Shown here: positions 2,754 to 15,689 of the stretch, piece after piece | How the letters are laid out: every line of letters begins with the position of its first letter | Position numbering within the stretch: position 1 is the first letter of the stretch | Source of the DNA: Octopus vulgaris | Taxonomy: Eukaryota | Assembly (NCBI GenBank): GCA_951406725.2 | Contig: OX597820.1 | Coordinates: 7,378,001-7,442,000 of the forward strand | DNA length: 64,000 bases | Direction: 5' to 3' | Made by a program: the position numbers and the translations under genes | Notes under the pieces: generated by a model | The model's input: the letters and a program-made list of their open reading frames with translations, nothing else | Told to the model about the DNA's origin: nothing | Databases searched by the model: none

Positions 2754-4332
2754 TGTTTCTTTATTAGCCACACAGGGCTGCACACAGATAGAACAAATTA
2801 CAAGGTAGAGCTTTTCTTTTGAAGGTTTAAGAAAGAAAAAAAAAAAAAAAAAAAAGGAAGGGGGAGTTTCGATCAAAAGGGATCGTAAAAGGAGAGAAAG
2901 AGGACAAAAAAAGGGGGGTTTAAAAAAAAAAAGGGGGGAGGAAAAACAATTGATCAATAGGGATCGTTATCACAGAAATGTCAATATGAAGTGTAAAGGG
3001 GAGGACAGGTGAGGTTTACCCGTGCAAAGAAAAGCCTACGGAAAAGACCACGGTAACCTCGGTCAATGATGTCACATTTTATATTTCTTTTTTTTTTTTT
3101 TTTGCAAATAAGCAACTCTCTGTTTTCGATTTCTGGGTTCATAGGACTATGCTCAAGGTGGCTTCGTCATTCATACGTGCCATTCTTGCTACATTCACCC
3201 ATCTTTTTTTAAAACATTCGCTAGACAAAACTTGCCTTTCTACTCTCACTTTCCTTTTCAAGTGGTACTTGAAGAAGTTGATGAGAGATTGACCAGAGAG
3301 GAAAGTGTTTGTCTCCAATCCTTTCAGACGCGTCCACCAGATACATTCTTTCGCCATAGCCACAAGGATGATGAAAATAGCTCTTCCTTCCCGTTTGAAG
3401 GAAGGAGGCGTGACAATATTGACGATAGACTCAGCTGATAAACCGACTCGTCCCACACGTGACAGCAGTTGTTCGACATAAGCCCACAGGTCGGAAATTG
3501 TTGGACACTGAACGAGTGCGTGCAGAACGGTTTCGTCGCTCTGACCGCATCTCGGGCAGGTCGGCCCCGTGTTTCTCGAGCCGTGTCTGTAGAGCTTATC
3601 CCGAACGGGTAGCGCTTCTCGGTAGCACTGCCAGGCCAGGGATCTCTGGAAGTTGTCCATGGGCCCTGGTCCGAACGTCGTCCTGAACAGGCGGGTCAGG
3701 TACTCCTCGTCGACGTCCAGGTTCGCCCCGAGCTCGTCGTCGTACCTCCCCTCCACTAAACCCCTATAGAATGCTTTGGTTGTGTTGAAGTCACTTAAGG
3801 TCGACCCAGGACGGCAGAGTTGCTTGAGAGCAACGCGACACTCGCGGTGCCATTCGCCCTTCCTCGGCCTCTTTTTGATCCACGACTGCAGTTCGGTCAT
3901 GGAGACGAGCTGCGGGAAAGCGTGCCTCACAAACGGCGACCACACCTGTTCACCGTCGTCTACATAGAGCCAGAGATGCCGCAGTCTCAGCGCGTGTCTG
4001 CGCATCATCAACCACGGCATGCCCAGCCCTCCTTTTAACGGGTGTTGACAGCAAATGGATCGCCTGACCATCGGGACGCATCCTTTCCACAAGAAGCGAA
4101 AGAGATGCGTTGTAGTTTGGTGATGGTAGGGTCGGGACAAGGTACGACGGTCAGGCGGTAGTAGATGACGGACGCGATGTACGTGTTCGCCACCTCCGCT
4201 CGACCTTTTAGGGACAGTTTCCTCTCGGCCCATTGCCGGGCGAGAGTGACCACCCTACTCGTTATCTCGTTCCAGTTCTTCTCCACTTGGAGGTCCGGAC
4301 CAAACCAGACCCCGAGCAACTAGACCCCGAGC

Positions 4333-4427: not shown

Positions 4428-4864
4428 GCAGATGTTTTTCAAATAGATACAAGGTCGGTGCTGCCAATAAATGCGATTTCACTGTTTAACTTTACCTTAA
4501 CGACTCCACAGTGAGAAAAACTTTTCGAACGAAACCCTACAATACATTCTATCTGATAATTTACTGATTCTATCAATCTAACAGCCTGGTATTTATAAGG
4601 ATTTAATTAGGGGTTTACGTAAAACGTAAATGATTTGATGATTAAGCGGCCTGAAAATAGTCCGGTCTTTAAATATTTTTTATATCATTATAAGTTTAGG
4701 GTTTTATCTCAAATATTTGGCTACAAGCATTTTACGGGTAACTTTTCGGGCATTTTTATGAAACTGTAAATTAAAGAAGGGTTTCAGTTGTTTAGAGAAG
4801 TAACTTCGCGTCAATTGTTGTCAATTTTATTCTTATATTACTTATTATGTAATATGTTATATTG

Positions 4865-5699: not shown

Positions 5700-6362
5700 G
5701 AGTTGGTGGTGGTGGTGGTTTTGGTGGTGGTGGTGGTTTTGGTGGTGGTGGTATTGGTGGTGTTGGTGGTTGTGGTGGTAGTCGTGGTGGTATTGGTGGT
5801 CGTGGTGGTAGTCGTGGTGGTGGTCGTGGTGGTGGTGTTGGTGTTGGTGGTGGTGGTGGTGGTGACAATTTTGGGTTAGCGGTTGTGATGATGTTTGTAG
5901 TGGTGGTGTTGGTAGCAGTGTCGTTCTCTAGTTAGTGGTAATAATAGTGGTGGTGGTGGTGGTGGTGCTATTGCTGCTTCTATTTTTACTACAGTTGCCG
6001 CTGCTGCTGCTGATGGTGATAAAGATCATACTGATGACAACAGTGACGAAGATGACGACGGCGACGACGACGACAACGGTGATGATGATGATGATGGTGT
6101 TGATGATGATGATGATGATGATGGTGTTGATGATGATGATGATGATGGTGTTGATGATGATGATGATGATGGTGTTGATGATGATGATGATGATGGTGTT
6201 GATGATGATGATGATGATGATGGGAGGTGATGATGATGATGATGTTGATGATGATGATGATGATGAATAATGATGAGGGTGGTGGTGATGATGATGATGG
6301 TGATGATGATGATGATGATGATGATGGTGATGGTGATGGTGATGATGGTGATGGTGATGATG

Positions 6363-6394
<32 letters not shown>

Positions 6395-6437
6395 GATGGT
6401 GATGGTGATGGTGATGATGGTGATGGTGATGATGATG

Positions 6438-6469
<32 letters not shown>

Positions 6470-6583
6470 GGTGGTGATGATGATGGTGATGATGATGATG
6501 GTGATGATGATGATGATGATGGTGGTGATGATGATGATGATGGTGGTGGTGATGATGATGAAATGATGATGATGATGATGATA

Positions 6584-6642
<59 letters not shown>

Positions 6643-6728
6643 GATGATGGTGGTGATGATGATGATGAAATGATGATGATGATGATGATAATGATGATGA
6701 TAATGATGATGATGATGATGATGATGAT
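5700..6728. repeat. Trinucleotide microsatellites (GGT)n then (GAT)n/(GGT)n mosaic
   Basis: Read directly. Poly-V, -M, -D and -P ORFs appear in multiple frames. Confidence 0.95.
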
Positions 6729-7034
6729 TACAATGCGTCAGATGTTATTTTCTGTGGTGAACCCGAATAAAAGGGACGTCCATAACAGCAAGGGCACTTA
6801 AATTACTCTCAGGTATATATTACGGGCAGCAATTGTCCCAGGGAGCTGCATTTCAAAAGACATGATTGAAACAAAAGGGGGAGGGGGAGGAAGAGGAGAG
6901 ATTTTGCTATTGTAAGGTGGATCGGTAGTTGGTGCTGCGTGGGTTCACCGCTGGGTTATCCACTGGAGAGAAGAAGTAACGTGCAAGTTGTCTTGGGTAG
7001 CACCTATGTCTGTCTGGGTGGGTCATATATATTG

Positions 7035-7265
7035 GGCGGCGAGCTGGTAGAAACGTTAGCACGCCGGGCGAAATGCTTTGTGGTATTTCGTCCGCCACTG
7101 CGTTCTGAGTTCAAATTCCGCCGAGGTCGACTTTGCCTTTCATCCTTTCGAGGTCGATAAATAAAGTACCAGTTACTCACTGGAGTCGATGTTGTCGACA
7201 TAATCCCTTTGTCTGTCCTTGTTTGTCTCCTCTATATTTAGCCCCTTGTGGGCAGTAAAGAAATA
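7035..7265 (+). mobile_element. SINE-A: tRNA-derived head, Deu/Nin-like central domain, A1 (Tx1-like) tail
   Basis: Head ggcggcgagctgg, B-box-like gagttcaaattcc, core gaggtcgactttgcctttcatcctttcgaggtcgataaa, tail agccccttgtgggcagtaaagaaata. Multiple copies occur in the window. Confidence 0.9.
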
Positions 7266-8490
7266 TATATATACAAGGGTAATCCCAAAAGTACACACAC
7301 ACACACACAAACCATGCTTCTGCAGACATACAGTTTGCTTTCCAACCATGTGGTTTGGGGTTAAGTCCTACACAGTACCTTGGCGAAATGCCTTCTTGTA
7401 TGGCATTTGGGACTGACCAAAGGCACTTACTACAATGACGCTGTCGCAGATCTGGATTTCTTAAGATTTTCCACACACACACATTCAAAGCTTAGTCTAA
7501 CATGCTGTCATCAGACTTAATTACTTCGGCTTCTGAAGCCTGTTCTTGGTAGAAGACGTTCATTTGATCATAGGAGCAACGTAGTTGGGGAAGTTCGTTG
7601 AGTTTGGGTAGCAAGGAGAAAGAAATGGTCGAGCGAGAAGGAATAAAGAGAAAATGAAGACGGTAAAAGGATATCGGAGTGGAAAAGGAGTGGAAGTAAC
7701 AATCTTTCGACGAAGCTGTTTGCGTCGTTTAATAGAAATTGCTATTTGATTACAGGTAAGGTGTTCTCATTTGCTTTTTGTTAGTTCAGTCAGGTGTTTA
7801 TGGAAAGTTACCTGCTCGTAGTTAAAATTGTGTGGGAGTTCATGAGATAGAAACATAAGACTCCAATTACTAATACATTTGGATTCTACAAAAACATTTG
7901 TATTCTGCTGCGATTCTTGTTACATAATTCATTCAGAATCTACAAAAAGAAATGTATTTGGATGTTTATAATATATTAGAACAAGAAATAAAAAAAAACC
8001 CAGTTGCATCATGCTCCGTTTGTGACTATCAGTAGATTTAGAATTTGAAATGGTAAAACTATTTGCAATCTGCGGCATTTGTAAAGAATGTTACATTTGG
8101 ACACTCTGCTGTTTTGTGACTTTATTTGCATTTATAAACAAATAAAAACAAGAATGATTCATCTGAATCTGCGGTTACACTTACACATGGATTCCCCCAA
8201 AGCAATTCGATTCTTATTCTGCTGCTGTTGCTGCTTCTATTACTACAGTTGGAATCAACAAAAAACAATTGCATTCTACAGCTTTTTCTTTAAACTAAGG
8301 ATGCAGTTGGAAGCTGCGAAAATAATTCTATTCTACTATAAGTACAATTGGGTTCTGCTACGGTTTCTGTGACTACAGCTTTGGCTCTGCAAAAACATTT
8401 GCGCTCTTCTACTTTTATGAACTCATTTACCTGTGGAATCTGCATCGACAATTGTTTTCCGCTGGAACTACAGATGAAATCTAAATAAAC

Positions 8491-8910
8491 AGGCGCAGGA
8501 GTGGCTGTGTGGTAAGTAGCTTGCTTACCAACCACATGGTTCCGGGTTCAGTCCCACTGCGTGGAATCTTGGGCAAGTGTCTTCTGCTATAGCCCCGGGC
8601 CGACCAATGCCTTGTGAGTGGATTTCGTTGAAGGAAACTGAAAGAAGCCTGTCGTATATATGTATATATATATATAAAATATATATATATATATGTGTGT
8701 GTATGTGTTTGTGTGTCTGTGTTTGTCCCCCCACCATCGCTTGACAACCGATGCTGGTGTGTTTACGTCCCCGTCACTTAGCGGTTCGGCAAAAACAGAC
8801 CGATAGAATAAGTACTGGGCTAACAAAGAATAAGTCCCGGGGTTGATTTGCTCGGCAAAAGGCGGTGCTCCAGCATGGCCGCAGTCAAATGACTGAAACA
8901 AGTAAAAGAG
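8491..8910 (+). mobile_element. SINE-B: tRNA head, CORE-like domain, internal TA/TG microsatellite, (AAAAGAGT)n tail; inserted in the tandem array
   Basis: aggcgcaggagtggctgtgtggtaag…ggttcagtccc…cttgggcaagtgtctt…gactgaaacaagtaaaagag. More than 10 copies in the window. Confidence 0.9.
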
Positions 8911-11171
8911 TTGTATCCTTCAGCATAAATGCCTGCAGTTACTGTGGGATTCTACAAAAGAATTTGGACACAGCTACATTTCTGAACTCATATTTGGACT
9001 CTACAAAAATATTTGACTTCTACAGTTTTTGCAACGAGATTGAAATTTGGAAACAGTTTTATTCAGCTATGACATCTATTAGAATCCACAAGAACATTTA
9101 TATCCTAGTTTAATACATTTCGAATCTATACCAATAATTGTATTATGATGCTTTGGCGACTGTAGTGTGTATTGTAATCTACAAGAACATATTTATTCTA
9201 CTGCACTGGTGACTTCGAGATGAAAATTAAAACCAGTTGTATTCTGCAGCCAATACGAGTTGTAAACTCCTTAAACAATTGTAATCTAATGTAACTACAC
9301 TTGAAATGCATATAAAGGACTCTATTGCATTTGTGATTGATGTTACGTTTGGAATTCATAAAAACTCTCGTAGTTTGCAACGATCGTCACCGCTATTATA
9401 GTTGGAATCTGGGGAGAAAATATTTATATTTTGTTACATTCGTAAATCGAGTCACATTGGAAATCTACGATTGCAATTGTACTCTGCTGCATTGGTGGAT
9501 TTGGTGATATTTCTCATCTCCAAAAACAAGTTTGTTCTGCTGCATTTGAAATCCCAAAGCACAAAATATATATCGAAGCATTTGTTACCACAGCTCCAGT
9601 TGAAATCTAGGACAACTATTGCAATCTGCTGCATTTGCGATCATTTCTATGTGGAATCTACAAGAGAAATTGCAATCTGGGACACATTTGCAAGAGGAAG
9701 CTGCAAAAGCAAAGATAGCCTCGTGCTGCTTTCGCAAATGTATTTTGCTTGTGGAACTTACAGACACAATTGTATTCTTCGCATTTTTTTGTATGTAGTT
9801 ACATTGGGTATCTACAAAAACAATTGTATTCTGCAACGTTCATGAATTTATTTACACTTTGAGTCTACAAAAACCAGTGCATTCTGCTACTTTTATGAAT
9901 ACATTCACATCTGGAATCTACAGAAATAACGGTCTCCTGTTAGTCCTATGAATGTAATTCTAATTGGAACCTGCAATGCCAACTGTCTTCTATTTTTTAT
10001 GAATGGAGATTATTGAAATCTCAAAAGCATATGTATTAAACTACTTTGGTGAATGTATTTTTGTTTGCGATCTACTAAAGAATTACGATAACATTTCGAA
10101 ATTTTTCTAAAAAATTTACGTTCGTAGTTTTTTGAATGCATTTAAATATGGACTCTATAAAATCAGTTGTATTCTGCAATAGTTACGAAGTAATTACATT
10201 TGAATTTACAAACACATTTAGAATCTACTAACCTCAATTACTATTCTGTTTTTGAAACTACAGTCGAAAGCTACAAATACATATGAATACAATCTGCTTT
10301 GTTAGTGTTTTTATATTTCGAATCTACAAAAGAAGTTGTACTCCGCCCACTTTGGGAATGGTTTTAGGTTCGGAATCTACAACACACAATTGTATTCTGT
10401 TACTTTTACTCATGGATTTACACTTGGTAAATACAAAAACAAATACATTCTGCTACTTTTTTGAATGTATTTATATCTGGAATCTACAAAGCTACTTGCT
10501 TTCCTCTAATTCTATGAAAAGATTTATATTTAGAATATGCAAAATCTAACGTAGTCTGATGCATCTTTTAGACATTTTTATTTGGAATCTAAAAAACAAC
10601 AACTGTATTCTGCTACAATTGTGAATGCAAATAAACTTTTGTAATCTGCTTGTAGAAAAGTATTATTCTGCTTTTGCGACTACATTTGGAATCTACAAAA
10701 CCAGTTATATTCTGTTACATTTATCAATTTCATTTACATTTGGAATTTATGAAAAACATTTTTTTTTCTACTTCTTTTGTGAATGCATTTATAGTTGAAA
10801 TCTACAAGAAAAGGATTTTATGCCACTGCATTCGCGGTTAGATTTGGTGCTAGATTCCAATTGCATTCTGCTACATTTAGGAAAACATTTTACATTTGGG
10901 AAACTTTGGGAAACGCATTTCTGATTGGAATCTACGAAGACAGTTGTATCCTCTTACATTTTATGTATATATTATTAGGAATCTACAAAAGCAATTGTTT
11001 ACATGGGAATATGGAACCACAGTTCTGTTCAGCTCATAATGTGAATGTGTTTATATTTGTAATCTACAAACACAATTTTATTCTGCAACTTTCGTGAATG
11101 AATTTGCATTTGGCTCTCCAAAAACAGGAATAACCTGCTACTTGTTTGAATGCGTTAGCATTAAGTTTCTC

Positions 11172-11585
11172 ATTTCTTTACTACCCACAATGGGCTAAAC
11201 ATAGAGGGGACAAACAAGGACAAACAAACGGATTAATTCGATTACATCGACCCCAGTGCGTAACTGGTACTTGATTTATCAGCCCCGAAAGGATGAAAGG
11301 CAAAGTTGAACTCGGCGGAATTTGAACTCAGAATGTAACGGCAGACAAAATACCTATTTCTTTATTACCCACAAGGGGCTAAACACAGAGAGGACAAACA
11401 AGGACAGACAAACGGATTAAGTCGATTACATCGACCCCAGTGCATAACTGGTACTTAATTTATCGACCCCAAAAGGATGAAAGGCAAAGTCGACCTCGGC
11501 CGAATTTGAACTCAGAACGTAACAGCAGACGAAAAAACCGCTAAGCATTTCGCCCGGCGTGCTAACGTTTCTGCTAGTTCGCCGC
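11172..11585 (-). mobile_element. SINE-A dimer (full copy 11355-11585 followed by headless copy 11172-11354) inside the tandem array
   Basis: Two SINE-A bodies and tails in tandem. An imperfect 17-bp direct repeat flanks them (11154-11170 and 11589-11605). Confidence 0.9.
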
Positions 11586-14500
11586 TTTGTTAACATCTAG
11601 TTTCTACTAAAACAGTTCCAATCTTCTGCTTTTGTAACTGCATTGGGAAGTTAGAAAAACATGAATTCTGCTCTTCCTTTTGTGAATGCATTTCTGTAGC
11701 AAATCTAACAAAACAATTGTGTTATGCTATCCTTATTCTGCAAATCCAGAAATACTTTTATTTGGAAACTAAAAAAGCAGTTGTATTCTGCTACATTTGC
11801 GAGTTCATGTATATTTGGAATCTACAAAACCTATTGCATTCTGAGACTGTTCAAATGCAGATTTGGAATCTGCAAAAACAAACTTATATCTTACATATTT
11901 TCTGAATGCATTAACTATTGAAATCTACAAGAACTGTTACACTCGACTACGTTTATGCATGTTTCTACATTTAGAGAATATATAATACAATTGTATTCTG
12001 TTTCTCTTAAGAATGCATTTCCATTTGCCGCCTGCAAACGCAATTCTGTACCACTGTTTGTCTGAATGCATTGTTATTTGATATCTATTACATATATTTC
12101 ACTTCTGTGAATGCATCTAGATTCGGTATCTGCTAAAACAATTGTATTCAGTTCCTATCTCTAATGCATTTACAATTCAAAACTGTGAATGCATTTAATT
12201 TAGAATCTACAAACACAATTGCTTTCTGCTACACTTGCAAATGCATTATATATGGAATATTCTACAACTTTTGTGTAACTATTTGTATTTTAAATCTGCA
12301 CAAGCAATTGTTATGTAATCCTCTGCTTTTGCGAAAACTTGTGGAACCTGCAAAACAAGTCTATTTCGCTTCTTTTGTGAATGCATTTATATTTAGATTC
12401 TGCAAAAACGGTTGCATTCTTTTGCTTCTATAAATACATTTACTTGTGGTATCTACAAAACAATTGTATTCTTCTAAATTTTAAAACGTATTTTTATTTG
12501 GAATTTACCAAAACAGTTATATTCTACGACATCTCTGAAAGCATTCATTTTGAAATTAACACAGATATTTCTATTCTCCGAATATTATGAATGCATTTAC
12601 GCATGGAATATTACTAAAAAAAACAAAACAATTCTACTCTGCTGCTTTTGTGAACATGTATATATCTATAGTCTAAAAGAATGGTATTCTACTCCTTTTG
12701 TGAATGCATTTTAGTTAGAATCTACATAAAACATTGCTACTTCTGTGGATGCAACTATATTTGGAATCTTCCAAAACTGTTATAGGAATGCATTTGCTGT
12801 TGGAATCTGCGAAAACAACACTACTCAGCTAATTTTGTGAATGCGTTTATGTCTGTCATGTGCAAAAAAAAATGTATTCCGTTGCATTTATGAAAGCATC
12901 TACGTTCGGATTAGCCACAAACAACTGCCCGGGTGCACCTTTTGCAAATGCAATTAGTTTGGGAATCATCAAAAACAAAGTCATTCTGCTAATTTTGCGA
13001 ATGCATTAACATTTGGAACTTACAAAACCAATTGTATTCCGTTCTTTTTTGAATTCATTTATATTTAGAATCTACATCCATTGTATTCCGTTGTATATAT
13101 GTGAATGCCTTTACGTTTAGTATCTACAAAAGCAATTGGATTCTCTTAATTTTGTGAATGTATTTCAATTTCGAATGCACGAAAGCAATTCAATTACTCT
13201 CCTTCTGCGACTGCATTCGGAATGTACAAATAAATTTTACTGTACTAGTTTTGTGGACACTTTTAATTTTGGAAAATACCCCAACAAATGTATTCACCTG
13301 CTTTTGAGTTAATATATGTAAAACTGCCAAAGTATTTCCACTCAGCTCCATTTGTGAATGCATTTACAGCTGGAATCCACAGAATCAATTGCACTCTATT
13401 ACTGTCGTGAATGCGCAACTATTTTTGTAAACTGCAAAACATTTGCATTCCTAAGCTTTTGGGACTGCATCTAAAGACTGCAAAAAGCCATGGTATTCTG
13501 CTACTTATGCGACTGCTTGAATTTTACAATTTCTATTGTGTTCTGCTACTACTCTAAAAGCATTTCCATTTGGATAATACAAAATTAATTCTGTCCTTCT
13601 GTTTTTAAGAATGTATTTATATTTGAAAAATACAAAAACAATTTTATTGCGCTTTTTAATGAATGCACTTTACATGGAAACTACATAAACAATTGTATTC
13701 AGCTCCTTTTACGAATGTTTTTTAGATTTGGAATCTACAAACACTTTTGTATTCCAGGAACTATGTAAATACATTTTGATTTGTAATTTGCAGAAACAGG
13801 TATATTCCTCTGATTTTACGATTACATTTGCAATCTACAAAATTAATTGCACTCTGCTAAATGTGTGAATGCAGTCACATTTCGAATCTACTAATACAAC
13901 TGCTTTTTCTGCCTTTGCGAGTACATTTGTAATCTACAAACCAACTGTTTTCTGCTCGTTTTGTGAATGAATATATTTTGGTAATTTCTAATAATAATTT
14001 GTTTTTTCTACAACTTCTATGGCACGTTTGCATTTGTGATTTACAAAAACAATTGTATCATATTTTGGAATTTACAAGAACATTTTATTGAACTACTTTT
14101 ATGAATGCTTTTGCATTTGGAATCTACAAAAAGAATTGTATTTTCTACGTTTGTGCGTGCATTTTCATTTGTATCTACGAAAACAATGGTTTTCCTCTGC
14201 TGTTGCGACTATATTTCGGATCCAAAAAGAAAAACGATTGCATGAATACATTTTCATTTGGCGACTATTAAACCAATCGCATTCTACTTTTGCAACTATT
14301 ATTATATTAGTAATTTACACAAAGAATTAATTTCTACTACACTTGTGGCTATATTCCCTCGCAGAAACGTAGAAAAAGAACTACAACTTGCTGTTTTTTT
14401 TTTTTTTTTGCTACAACTAAAATTTACAAAATACTACTCTTCTCCCATTTTCTGTGACTACAACCGGGAGTCTACAAAACAATTCTTTTCTGCTGAATTT

Positions 14501-15689
14501 GTGATTCCTGTCACAGTTGGAATCTACAAAAAACAATTGTATTGAATTTTTTTTTTTTTACTGCACATTTGAATGTGCAATGACAATTGCGTTGTTCCCC
14601 ATTTCTGAATATATTTTCTTTAGAATATCCAAAATTATTTGTAATCGACTACTTTTGTTGCTATAGTTACATTCTACAAAGACAAATGGACTCTGCTGCG
14701 TTTGCAACTTCAGTTGTAGTTTAAATCTGAAAAAAGATTTGTATTTTTCTGCTTTTCTAAACCGCGCAACAACATTTGGAATCTGCTAAAGCATCCTTAG
14801 TCGGCTGCTTTTCTGATTACGGTTGCATTTTACAAACAACTTTATTCTGTTGCGTTTATAATTGTAATCTACGAAGACATTGTATTCTGTGGCTTTTGCA
14901 GCTATGGCTTCAATCTACAAAACTGTTTGTATCTTTTCTGTATTTGTTGCCAGAGATACATTTGCAATCCACAAAGAACCACTTGCATTCTGCTGCTTTT
15001 ACAACTTGAGTTACTCTTGGAATCGACAAAGTAATTCTATGCTTCTGATTTCGCGAATACAGTTTAAATCGAACTCTAAAAAGGCAATTATATTCAGCCG
15101 TATTTTTGAATATATTTACTGGTTGAATGCACAAAAAAAGAATTCTATTCTGCTGCTTTTGTGACTACAGTTGGACACTAAAAAAACATCTCATTTCGCT
15201 GTATTTGTGACGACTGGTAAAGTTGGATTCCCCCCAAACAATTATATTCAACCGCTGCGACTCCATTCCACATAAGATTTTTATTTATAAAAGCAAGTTT
15301 ATTCGTCTACTTTCGTGGTTTCAGTTTCTTTTGGAACCTACGAACAACGGCGTCTTACTATTCTTTGGCATTCTACGAAACTGTCGTGTTCTGCTGATTT
15401 ACGGCGGATTATATTGCTTTGTGGTTTTCTTAGGTCTATTCAAGACTTTCACAAGGGTTTCTTAGTATGCGATGTTTGGAAAAATATTTATACTCATATA
15501 TGTGATTGGTTCCATATATATTACAGCGCGTGCCAGAGAAATATATGACACTTGATGGTCAGTACAAAATGCTTGCCTCTGAGTGGAATTTCAGCTGTAT
15601 TAATAAAGATCTTGGTTTAATATAACAGTACTGAAATAAAGGAATTTCATCAAGCGATCATCATGTTTGGCTTCTGTACAGAATTTTAT

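Follow-up and report, generated by a model that had tools for sequence, protein, structure and literature searches.

Locus-specific minisatellites and euchromatic satellites that are past homogenisation consist of head-to-tail units of 10-100 bp in which variants are interspersed and the edges are worn. We describe here an array of 53-bp and 47-bp units in a 64,000-nt stretch of the Octopus vulgaris genome (GenBank assembly GCA_951406725.2, contig OX597820.1, forward-strand positions 7,378,001 to 7,442,000; hereafter the window, numbered from its first letter) which is like them in occupying a single locus, in its interspersed variant units and in having edges more worn than its centre. It differs from typical polymorphic minisatellites in being far longer and more diverged (60% pairwise), nearly invisible to Tandem Repeats Finder (TRF) and without signs of recent unit duplication. 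Two other described systems resemble it in part. In alpha-satellite layers, according to the part of that report available to us (10.1101/2021.07.12.452052), a newer variant is likewise central, with diverged units on both sides and retroelement insertions; the octopus array, however, measures 6.7 kb rather than megabases, has no homogeneous active core, is built of 47/53-bp units with no sequence relationship to alpha satellite and offers no evidence of a centromere role. The tapiR1/2 locus of Aedes aegypti, as set out in the accessible part of its description (10.1101/2020.01.15.907428), is also an old, single-locus, head-to-tail array of diverged monomers whose unit number varies by species. 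There, conservation is far higher in the parts coding for PIWI-interacting RNA (piRNA) than in the remainder of the monomer, and the locus is ~200 million years (My) old, whereas in the octopus array no block is conserved beyond sequence context and the orthologue diverges at about the rate of its flank. We conclude that the array is very probably an old, locus-specific fossil satellite or minisatellite that is decaying without sequence-specific function.

The array is a real head-to-tail tandem repeat in a single orientation. Self-comparison of the sequence gave an identity of 0.369 at a lag of 53 and of 0.308 at a lag of 47, over a baseline of 0.284; broad echoes also appeared around lags of 106 and 160. 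TRF, which a first-pass annotation of the window had proposed as a check together with self-comparison, detected just two small pieces of the array. Wrap-around profile alignment returned 138 segments (127 with at least 35 aligned columns), a model with two unit types returned 137 (131 with at least 30 columns), and an independent MAFFT alignment of 18 hand-picked copies recovered the array unit and both lengths. With nhmmer there were 135 matches inside the array, 129 of them on the + strand; elsewhere in the window there were only seven, all with E >1.7, and no second copy. Three words that the annotation had quoted as recurring do repeat on the + strand of 7870-15470 and hardly on the + strand outside it: at exact, at most one and at most two mismatches, GGAATCTACAAAA has 5, 22 and 48 matches inside (0, 0 and 0 outside), ATTGTATTCTGCT 0, 13 and 38 (0, 0 and 2 outside) and TTTGTGAATGCATT 5, 10 and 25 (0, 0 and 0 outside). 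The same annotation had placed about 130 units of one orientation at 7870-15470, in good agreement with the 131 units counted here on one strand of 7872-15420, the right end fading out between ~15365 and 15470. Its 7.6-kb array is correct as to location; it overlooked two copies of short interspersed nuclear elements (SINEs) that take up ~0.85 kb of the span and leave 6693 bp (6.7 kb) of array DNA. Its period of 47-53 bp proves to be two discrete unit types, both lengths being real, instead of a range. The array and its segments are as follows.

7872..15420, + strand: whole head-to-tail array; 131 units with at least 30 aligned columns (96 of the 53-bp and 35 of the 47-bp type), 6693 bp without the SINEs
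7872..8490, + strand: array segment 1, rich in 47-bp units, stopping mid-unit (column 18) at SINE 1
8912..11160, + strand: array segment 2, from the profile and two-type alignments
11596..15420, + strand: array segment 3, without SINEs or microsatellites, from the profile and two-type alignments and the microsatellite cover

We found no account of such an array in the cephalopod literature, as covered by titles and the openings of abstracts with few subscription journals among them. In the main text of PMC13282606 the word 'satellite' is absent, and its supplements might list the array repeat; the available part of PMC8967140 leaves tandem and satellite repeats unmentioned. Exact-pattern scans of metagenome contigs and viral contigs gave no matches.

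Columns 1-32 are common to the two unit types, which differ in their final third; there the six extra bases of the 53-bp type complete a 16-nt near-palindrome. Among the 137 segments of the two-type model, 100 were of the 53-bp and 37 of the 47-bp type. The shorter type accounts for only 6 of 56 central units as against 29 of 75 end units (p 3e-4), and units of the 53-bp type are 77.4% identical to their majority in the centre (n=48) and 72.2% at the ends (n=43; p 1.6e-4). Such layering, with the 53-bp type central and the 47-bp type at the ends, is what the central expansion of a new variant would be expected to leave, as in alpha satellite; the direction is read from position alone.

9700..13150, + strand: central layer; 50 of 56 units belong to the 53-bp type, with 77.4% identity to the majority (72.2% among the 53-bp units of the ends)
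11056..11108, + strand: representative 53-bp unit, 46 of 53 columns equal to the majority
14168..14213, + strand: representative 47-bp-type unit, 38 of 46 columns equal to the majority of that type

The sole CG of the 47-bp type, at columns 40-41, has decayed to TG (11 copies) and CA (10 copies) about equally, as a methylated CpG would; octopus satellites are relatively more highly methylated in the part of PMC9476566 that could be consulted, which may bear on this.

The array shows no recent homogenisation: divergence is star-like, with no near-identical units and no higher-order repeat. Units are 74.4% identical to the majority with a standard deviation (SD) of 6.3, the binomial value being 6.2, and pairwise identity is 59.7% with an SD of 7.1, or 7.0 after column shuffling. 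The first-pass annotation had seen no near-identical neighbours, and the closest pair of all reaches 82.7%. Neighbouring units are 61.3% identical, all lags from 1 to 20 give 0.60-0.61, and identity drops slowly with distance to 0.57 at lag 100; as no lag from 1 to 20 stands out, a higher-order repeat was rejected. So was a sub-repeat of 17-18 bp, the best internal direct match being 21 of 53 positions where the null mean is 21.7. None of 1378 column pairs was linked beyond multiple testing (best p 1.3e-4). Substitutions are strand-symmetric, with none of six type pairs differing at p<0.05, and a transcription-linked asymmetry was rejected (smallest p 0.07). At G/C sites they run towards A+T; array G+C is 0.320 and that of a neutral simulation 0.328.

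Of 24 sequencing runs listed, eight, under four organism labels, hold at least half of the sampled words of 11600-15460, and a fifth label, E, holds 0.07. No run labelled as RNA figures among those that hold the array, which carries no information on its expression. Contigs of four of the 24 runs were compared over 6750-15680, the other organisms being B, D and E, and the array is kept in place in all three. One contig of organism E (record 9) spans from the left flank through the array to 12088, and two more cover 12082-14380 and 14421-15457; synteny is thus kept, with an orthologous array beside the same flank.

7476..7870, no strand assigned: left flank, on the same organism E contig as the array and the sole comparator for divergence

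Organism E carries 103 substitutions in 7476-8490, at least 39 of these in the 395-bp flank, then 140, 30, 172 and 70 in the pieces that follow. Divergence is therefore 476 of 6121 bases (7.8%) in the array and at least 39 of 395 (9.9%) in the flank (Fisher p 0.15), and the composition-adjusted ratio of array to flank, taken against this one 395-bp control, is 0.83 with a 95% range of 0.60-1.16. The first-pass annotation had counted a lack of synteny among the signs of a decayed satellite. Synteny is kept, but array and flank have diverged at similar rates in organism E, and for that reason kept synteny is compatible with neutrality; constraint is not shown. The locus tolerates large change, as 853 bases at 8490-9344 of the window face 93 in the organism E contig, from which SINE 1 and about six units are missing; at the SINE 2 site organism E has 417 bases where the window has 580. 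Organisms B and D differ by ~1-2%, and the ends of both SINEs are present in them.

The register of the units is matched by neutral decay. In a simulation that starts from a perfect array, with 12 replicates per setting, a rate of 0.064 indel events per substitution (11 listed indels over 172 substitutions in organism E record 13, which makes it a lower bound) gave identities of 0.372 at lag 53 and 0.315 at lag 106, and the array itself has 0.372 and 0.309. Simulated lag-53 identity was 0.525 without indels and 0.350 at 0.09 indels per substitution. Gap letters per substitution were similar in the decay of the array (642 over ~1625, ~0.40) and between the window and organism E (197 over 515, 0.38). 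Each unit has suffered no more than about one indel, which is enough to explain why the register survives.

Uniform divergence across the positions of the unit had been put forward in the first-pass annotation as the signature of a decayed satellite. In every base class the columns do in fact vary more than expected by chance (p 4e-23 to 5e-4), but this unevenness tracks sequence context and is therefore compatible with neutrality. Column conservation follows strand-collapsed trinucleotide context with an R2 of 0.76, against 0.51 by permutation (p 0.0008). The most variable columns include all four in TAC context and all three in TGC context, on either strand, and the interiors of homopolymers are slow. 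Over the 53 columns, divergence also correlates (rho 0.49, p 1.8e-4) with context rates estimated independently from 33 pieces of SINE in the window, which show 431 changes at 4751 sites. No column exceeds ~89% among the 53-bp units, and the best 13-mer is exact in five places.

Several observations weigh against a purely neutral decay. The correlation with context reaches p 0.028 for A/T columns and fails for the 15 G/C columns (p 0.51). A 13-mer at columns 4-16, picked post hoc for its frequency, ranks 2nd of 53 rotations for conservation, by 4 points, and occurs at 7.1 per kb (two mismatches) where the simulation gives 5.6 +/- 0.7. The substitution spectrum and total divergence of the simulation were taken from the array itself, so that only the match of the indel register is independent, and even there the identity at lag 52 is 0.350 against 0.317 simulated; recurrent one-base loss in A/T runs could be the cause of this excess. 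The neutral comparator is a single 395-bp flank whose count may be low, 40 of 566 rows of differences being listed, and the range of the ratio is compatible with a constraint of up to 40% on the array. The point estimate leans towards slower change of the array, in B and D as well, which have 26 and 27 differences in the ~1265 bp of flank and segment 1 compared with ~1.0-1.3% further in. No stretch of the window without microsatellites is longer than 8694-15687 (6993 bp, the next being 3526 bp), and an absence of seeds, rather than selection, would account for the lack of microsatellites only in part. Finally, 47-bp units are 75% identical to their own majority, as close as the 53-bp units are, so that the greater age of the shorter type is argued from its position alone.

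An explanation that would accommodate several of these points is that the array is a redundant set of weak protein-binding sites, or a chromatin or spacer element, under diffuse constraint: single units would be expendable while the whole is kept and guarded from microsatellite growth. Its persistence in all three other organisms, a divergence ratio whose range extends down to 0.60, the long gap between microsatellites and the rank of columns 4-16 would fit such an element, and the unit contains candidate Sox/HMG-like and POU-like words. However, the palindromic words of the unit are not protected once base class is removed: columns 17-24 rank 40th, 42-49 rank 37th and 47-1 rank 47th among the 53 rotations. 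Residual conservation does not cluster along the unit (lag-1 autocorrelation -0.07). The span carries no less SINE sequence than the DNA outside it (10% against 7.6% for the two families searched). Nor are A/T tracts significantly phased at about five helical turns, as the first-pass annotation had supposed. The AA/TT amplitude at 10.6 bp is 0.102 in the majority against 0.063 (p 0.13), and in the real array it is 0.042, within the shuffled range of 0.032-0.044; the centres of the A/T tracts fall at 4.4, 9.9, 4.7, 6.1 and 1.5 modulo 10.6, and helical phasing with bent-DNA A-tracts was rejected. We consider diffuse constraint improbable, as we do the specific form of it in which ~130 degenerate, redundant binding units, probably in a long intron, have persisted for tens of millions of years, evolve up to 40% more slowly than neutral DNA and are cleared of microsatellites. 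The near absence of microsatellites that the first-pass annotation reported is real (cover of 0.5% in the array span against 21% outside). A microsatellite would find no seed in the unit, which lacks any dinucleotide run of three, and this, together with the unreduced SINE cover, is why we would look to missing seeds.

Another possibility is that the array is a precursor of small (piRNA-like) RNAs or of double-stranded RNA, with part of each unit serving as a functional RNA as in mosquito tapiR1/2. The overall layout is similar, being an old single locus of diverged monomers, and some folding results point the same way: a dimer of the 53-bp majority folds better than dimers of shuffled units on the + strand (z -2.5, p 0.03, one of four tests), and one 600-nt piece folds below eight shuffles on both strands (-110.9 vs -92.7 +/- 6.5 and -119.6 vs -108.0 +/- 4.7). 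There is, however, no conserved block of 26-30 nt, and real folding (-16.9) equals that of neutrally decayed simulations (-15.8 to -17.8), with mean z values of -0.36 on the + and -0.25 on the - strand over 27 real 110-nt windows per strand. The units had been described as quasi-palindromic. Near-palindromes of 16 nt (columns 38-53) and 8 nt (columns 17-24) do exist in the 53-bp type, but over its full length the unit does not exceed shuffles in self-complementarity (28 of 53 positions matched; shuffled mean 26.5, 95th percentile 30). An excess of pairing at columns 38-53 (70.0% vs 67.6%, p 0.008) has its source in a single pair within edge units that were mis-typed; the 48 central units do not show it (203 vs 209 expected), and none of 12 other arm pairs shows a notable excess. 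Covariation in the palindromes was rejected, there being no compensatory change once the mis-typed edge units are removed. Rfam gave no matches. An RNA-precursor role thus appears very unlikely.

The first-pass annotation had called the array non-coding, and the evidence agrees. What might suggest a coding-repeat relic is that the 47-bp majority in tandem has no stop in 47 codons on the + strand (the 53-bp majority has one in 53), that the two types differ by two codons, and that stop-creating changes on the + strand were depleted in a first test (202 vs 269 expected, p 0.007), with a + stop density of 3.8 against 4.5 +/- 0.2 per 100 nt simulated. Measured against triplet sets that do not occur in the majority, which are the appropriate control, the depletion gives p 0.11-0.20. 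Across 21 blocks of 300 nt no frame is poor in stops (2.3, 3.9 and 5.1 vs Poisson 2.2, 3.7 and 5.4), 26 of 151 array indels are multiples of three, codon periodicity is absent (p 0.82), the longest stop-free run of 147 codons is as simulated (133 +/- 29), and 15 array frames have no Pfam match. A coding relic is therefore largely refuted by the stop, indel, periodicity and Pfam tests. The minus strand of each unit also carries acceptor-like and donor-like words 9 nt apart, which would make a candidate 9-nt microexon; the acceptor-like pair ranks 6th in conservation, but no pair of columns is less conserved than the donor-like one (rank 53 of 53), and a microexon array was rejected on this ground. 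We regard either coding reading as exceedingly unlikely. The array behaves as neutral DNA in every test of function that we ran. The first-pass annotation had left open an ancient dead satellite or a functional array of binding sites or RNA precursors; star-like decay, context-driven columns, a neutral register and a divergence compatible with that of the flank uphold the former, and the latter finds no motif, palindrome or block that is significantly protected.

We propose the following history for a fossil satellite of this kind. The 47-bp type would be the older and would have grown at this one locus by slippage and unequal exchange, after which a variant longer by 6 bp may have arisen, expanded centrally and pushed the older units outward. 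Exchange would then have stopped, the units being too diverged to pair. Homogenisation likely ended tens of millions of years ago; afterwards the array would have gathered substitutions and small indels, received SINEs and lost blocks of units. The Jukes-Cantor distance from the majority is 0.27-0.30, and the per-lineage distance to organism E is 0.041 (~7x less). On the octopus clock of 0.09 per 25 My given in the consulted part of PMC13282606, the array would have frozen no more than 75-85 My ago and organism E would have split off 11 My ago. As some variants were surely shared already when the array froze, its age has a lower bound, perhaps ~40 My as estimated from the best-kept columns. 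A SINE burst dated to 18 My in the same source fits young SINEs in an older array.

The two interrupting repeats are called SINEs because of their further copies in the window and their enormous contig depth.

8491..8911, no strand assigned: SINE 1, a dispersed repeat of high copy number that contains a TA/TG microsatellite at 8655-8726
~11165..11595, no strand assigned: SINE 2, of a second dispersed family, with a 184-bp internal duplication at 11172-11539 (90% match), sitting at a unit boundary

SINE 1 interrupts a single unit, which stops after column 18 and continues from about column 20-22 beyond the element, so that the array predates the insertion. Other genomic copies of SINE 1, seen from loose contig ends at 8491 and 8909, are flanked mostly by TA-rich and A-rich runs, which suggests that this family and microsatellites cluster together and would help to explain why the array has few of the latter. 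In the second family the body is tandemly duplicated (184 bp, 90%) at 11172-11539, and two to three pieces of it lie at 22980-23444. ARAGORN returned no tRNA genes.

As to origin, the array could instead be a stranded piece of a larger satellite family, or the internal repeat of an old transposon, that was copied in; this is compatible with its being a fossil now. The centre-to-edge layering resembles that of a decayed outer centromeric satellite, to judge from the available part of 10.1101/2021.07.12.452052, and sister arrays of less than 80% likeness would have escaped the contig comparison. Contig depth over the array is 37-540 in runs whose single contigs have ~50-60, whereas SINE bins reach millions; depth is not copy number, but a value near that of one contig argues that there is no abundant family at 80% likeness or more. 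There is also no other copy in the window, and no transposon gene or terminal repeat was noticed at the array ends. A Pfam search of 109 of the 197 candidate stop-free frames gave a single match, zf-RVT at 3142-4254, and no host gene among them; it belongs to a long interspersed nuclear element (LINE) 3.6 kb away. An origin by copying from elsewhere is accordingly unlikely in our judgement.

That LINE, at 3139-4319 (-), is a broken end with a reverse-transcriptase tail and the zf-RVT domain (E 2.5e-08) in at least two frames. Just left of the flank of the array, 5704-6728 consists of TGG and TGA trinucleotide repeats over ~1 kb and has the strongest G skew of the window. A 144-codon frame at 45974-46408 (-) resembles, by its motifs, a remnant of a Tc1/mariner transposase; it has no Pfam match at 0.001. 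The stretch at 43714-45210 (-), just right of a 100-N assembly gap near 43.1 kb, is G+C-rich and microsatellite-free with overlapping long frames, no Pfam match and a partial repeat at 54024-54419, and is perhaps the front end of a retroelement. In run X14, which we guessed to be RNA and which may be DNA, contigs lie on unique DNA at 7744-7969, 14035-14351 and 14478-14840; they are gapless, with 1, 4 and 0 differences, and each adjoins or spans an A/T run. Such a pattern would arise if oligo-dT primed internally on pre-mRNA (PMC10984380), and the array locus may lie inside a long intron; we draw no conclusion on transcription, splicing or editing, and none from the stretches that this run leaves uncovered.

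As a fossil the array is of modest importance. It indicates that this genome harbours unannotated kilobase-scale arrays of long units whose wear puts them beyond the reach of TRF. Its ~130 replicates of one ancestral sequence provide a record of context-dependent mutation rates, with TAC and TGC fast and homopolymer interiors slow, and the locus records an order of events in which the array came first and the split from organism E followed, SINE 1 being missing in E. Were diffuse constraint the true explanation, the array would represent a new route from satellite to regulatory element, in the form of a homotypic array of binding sites, in cephalopods.

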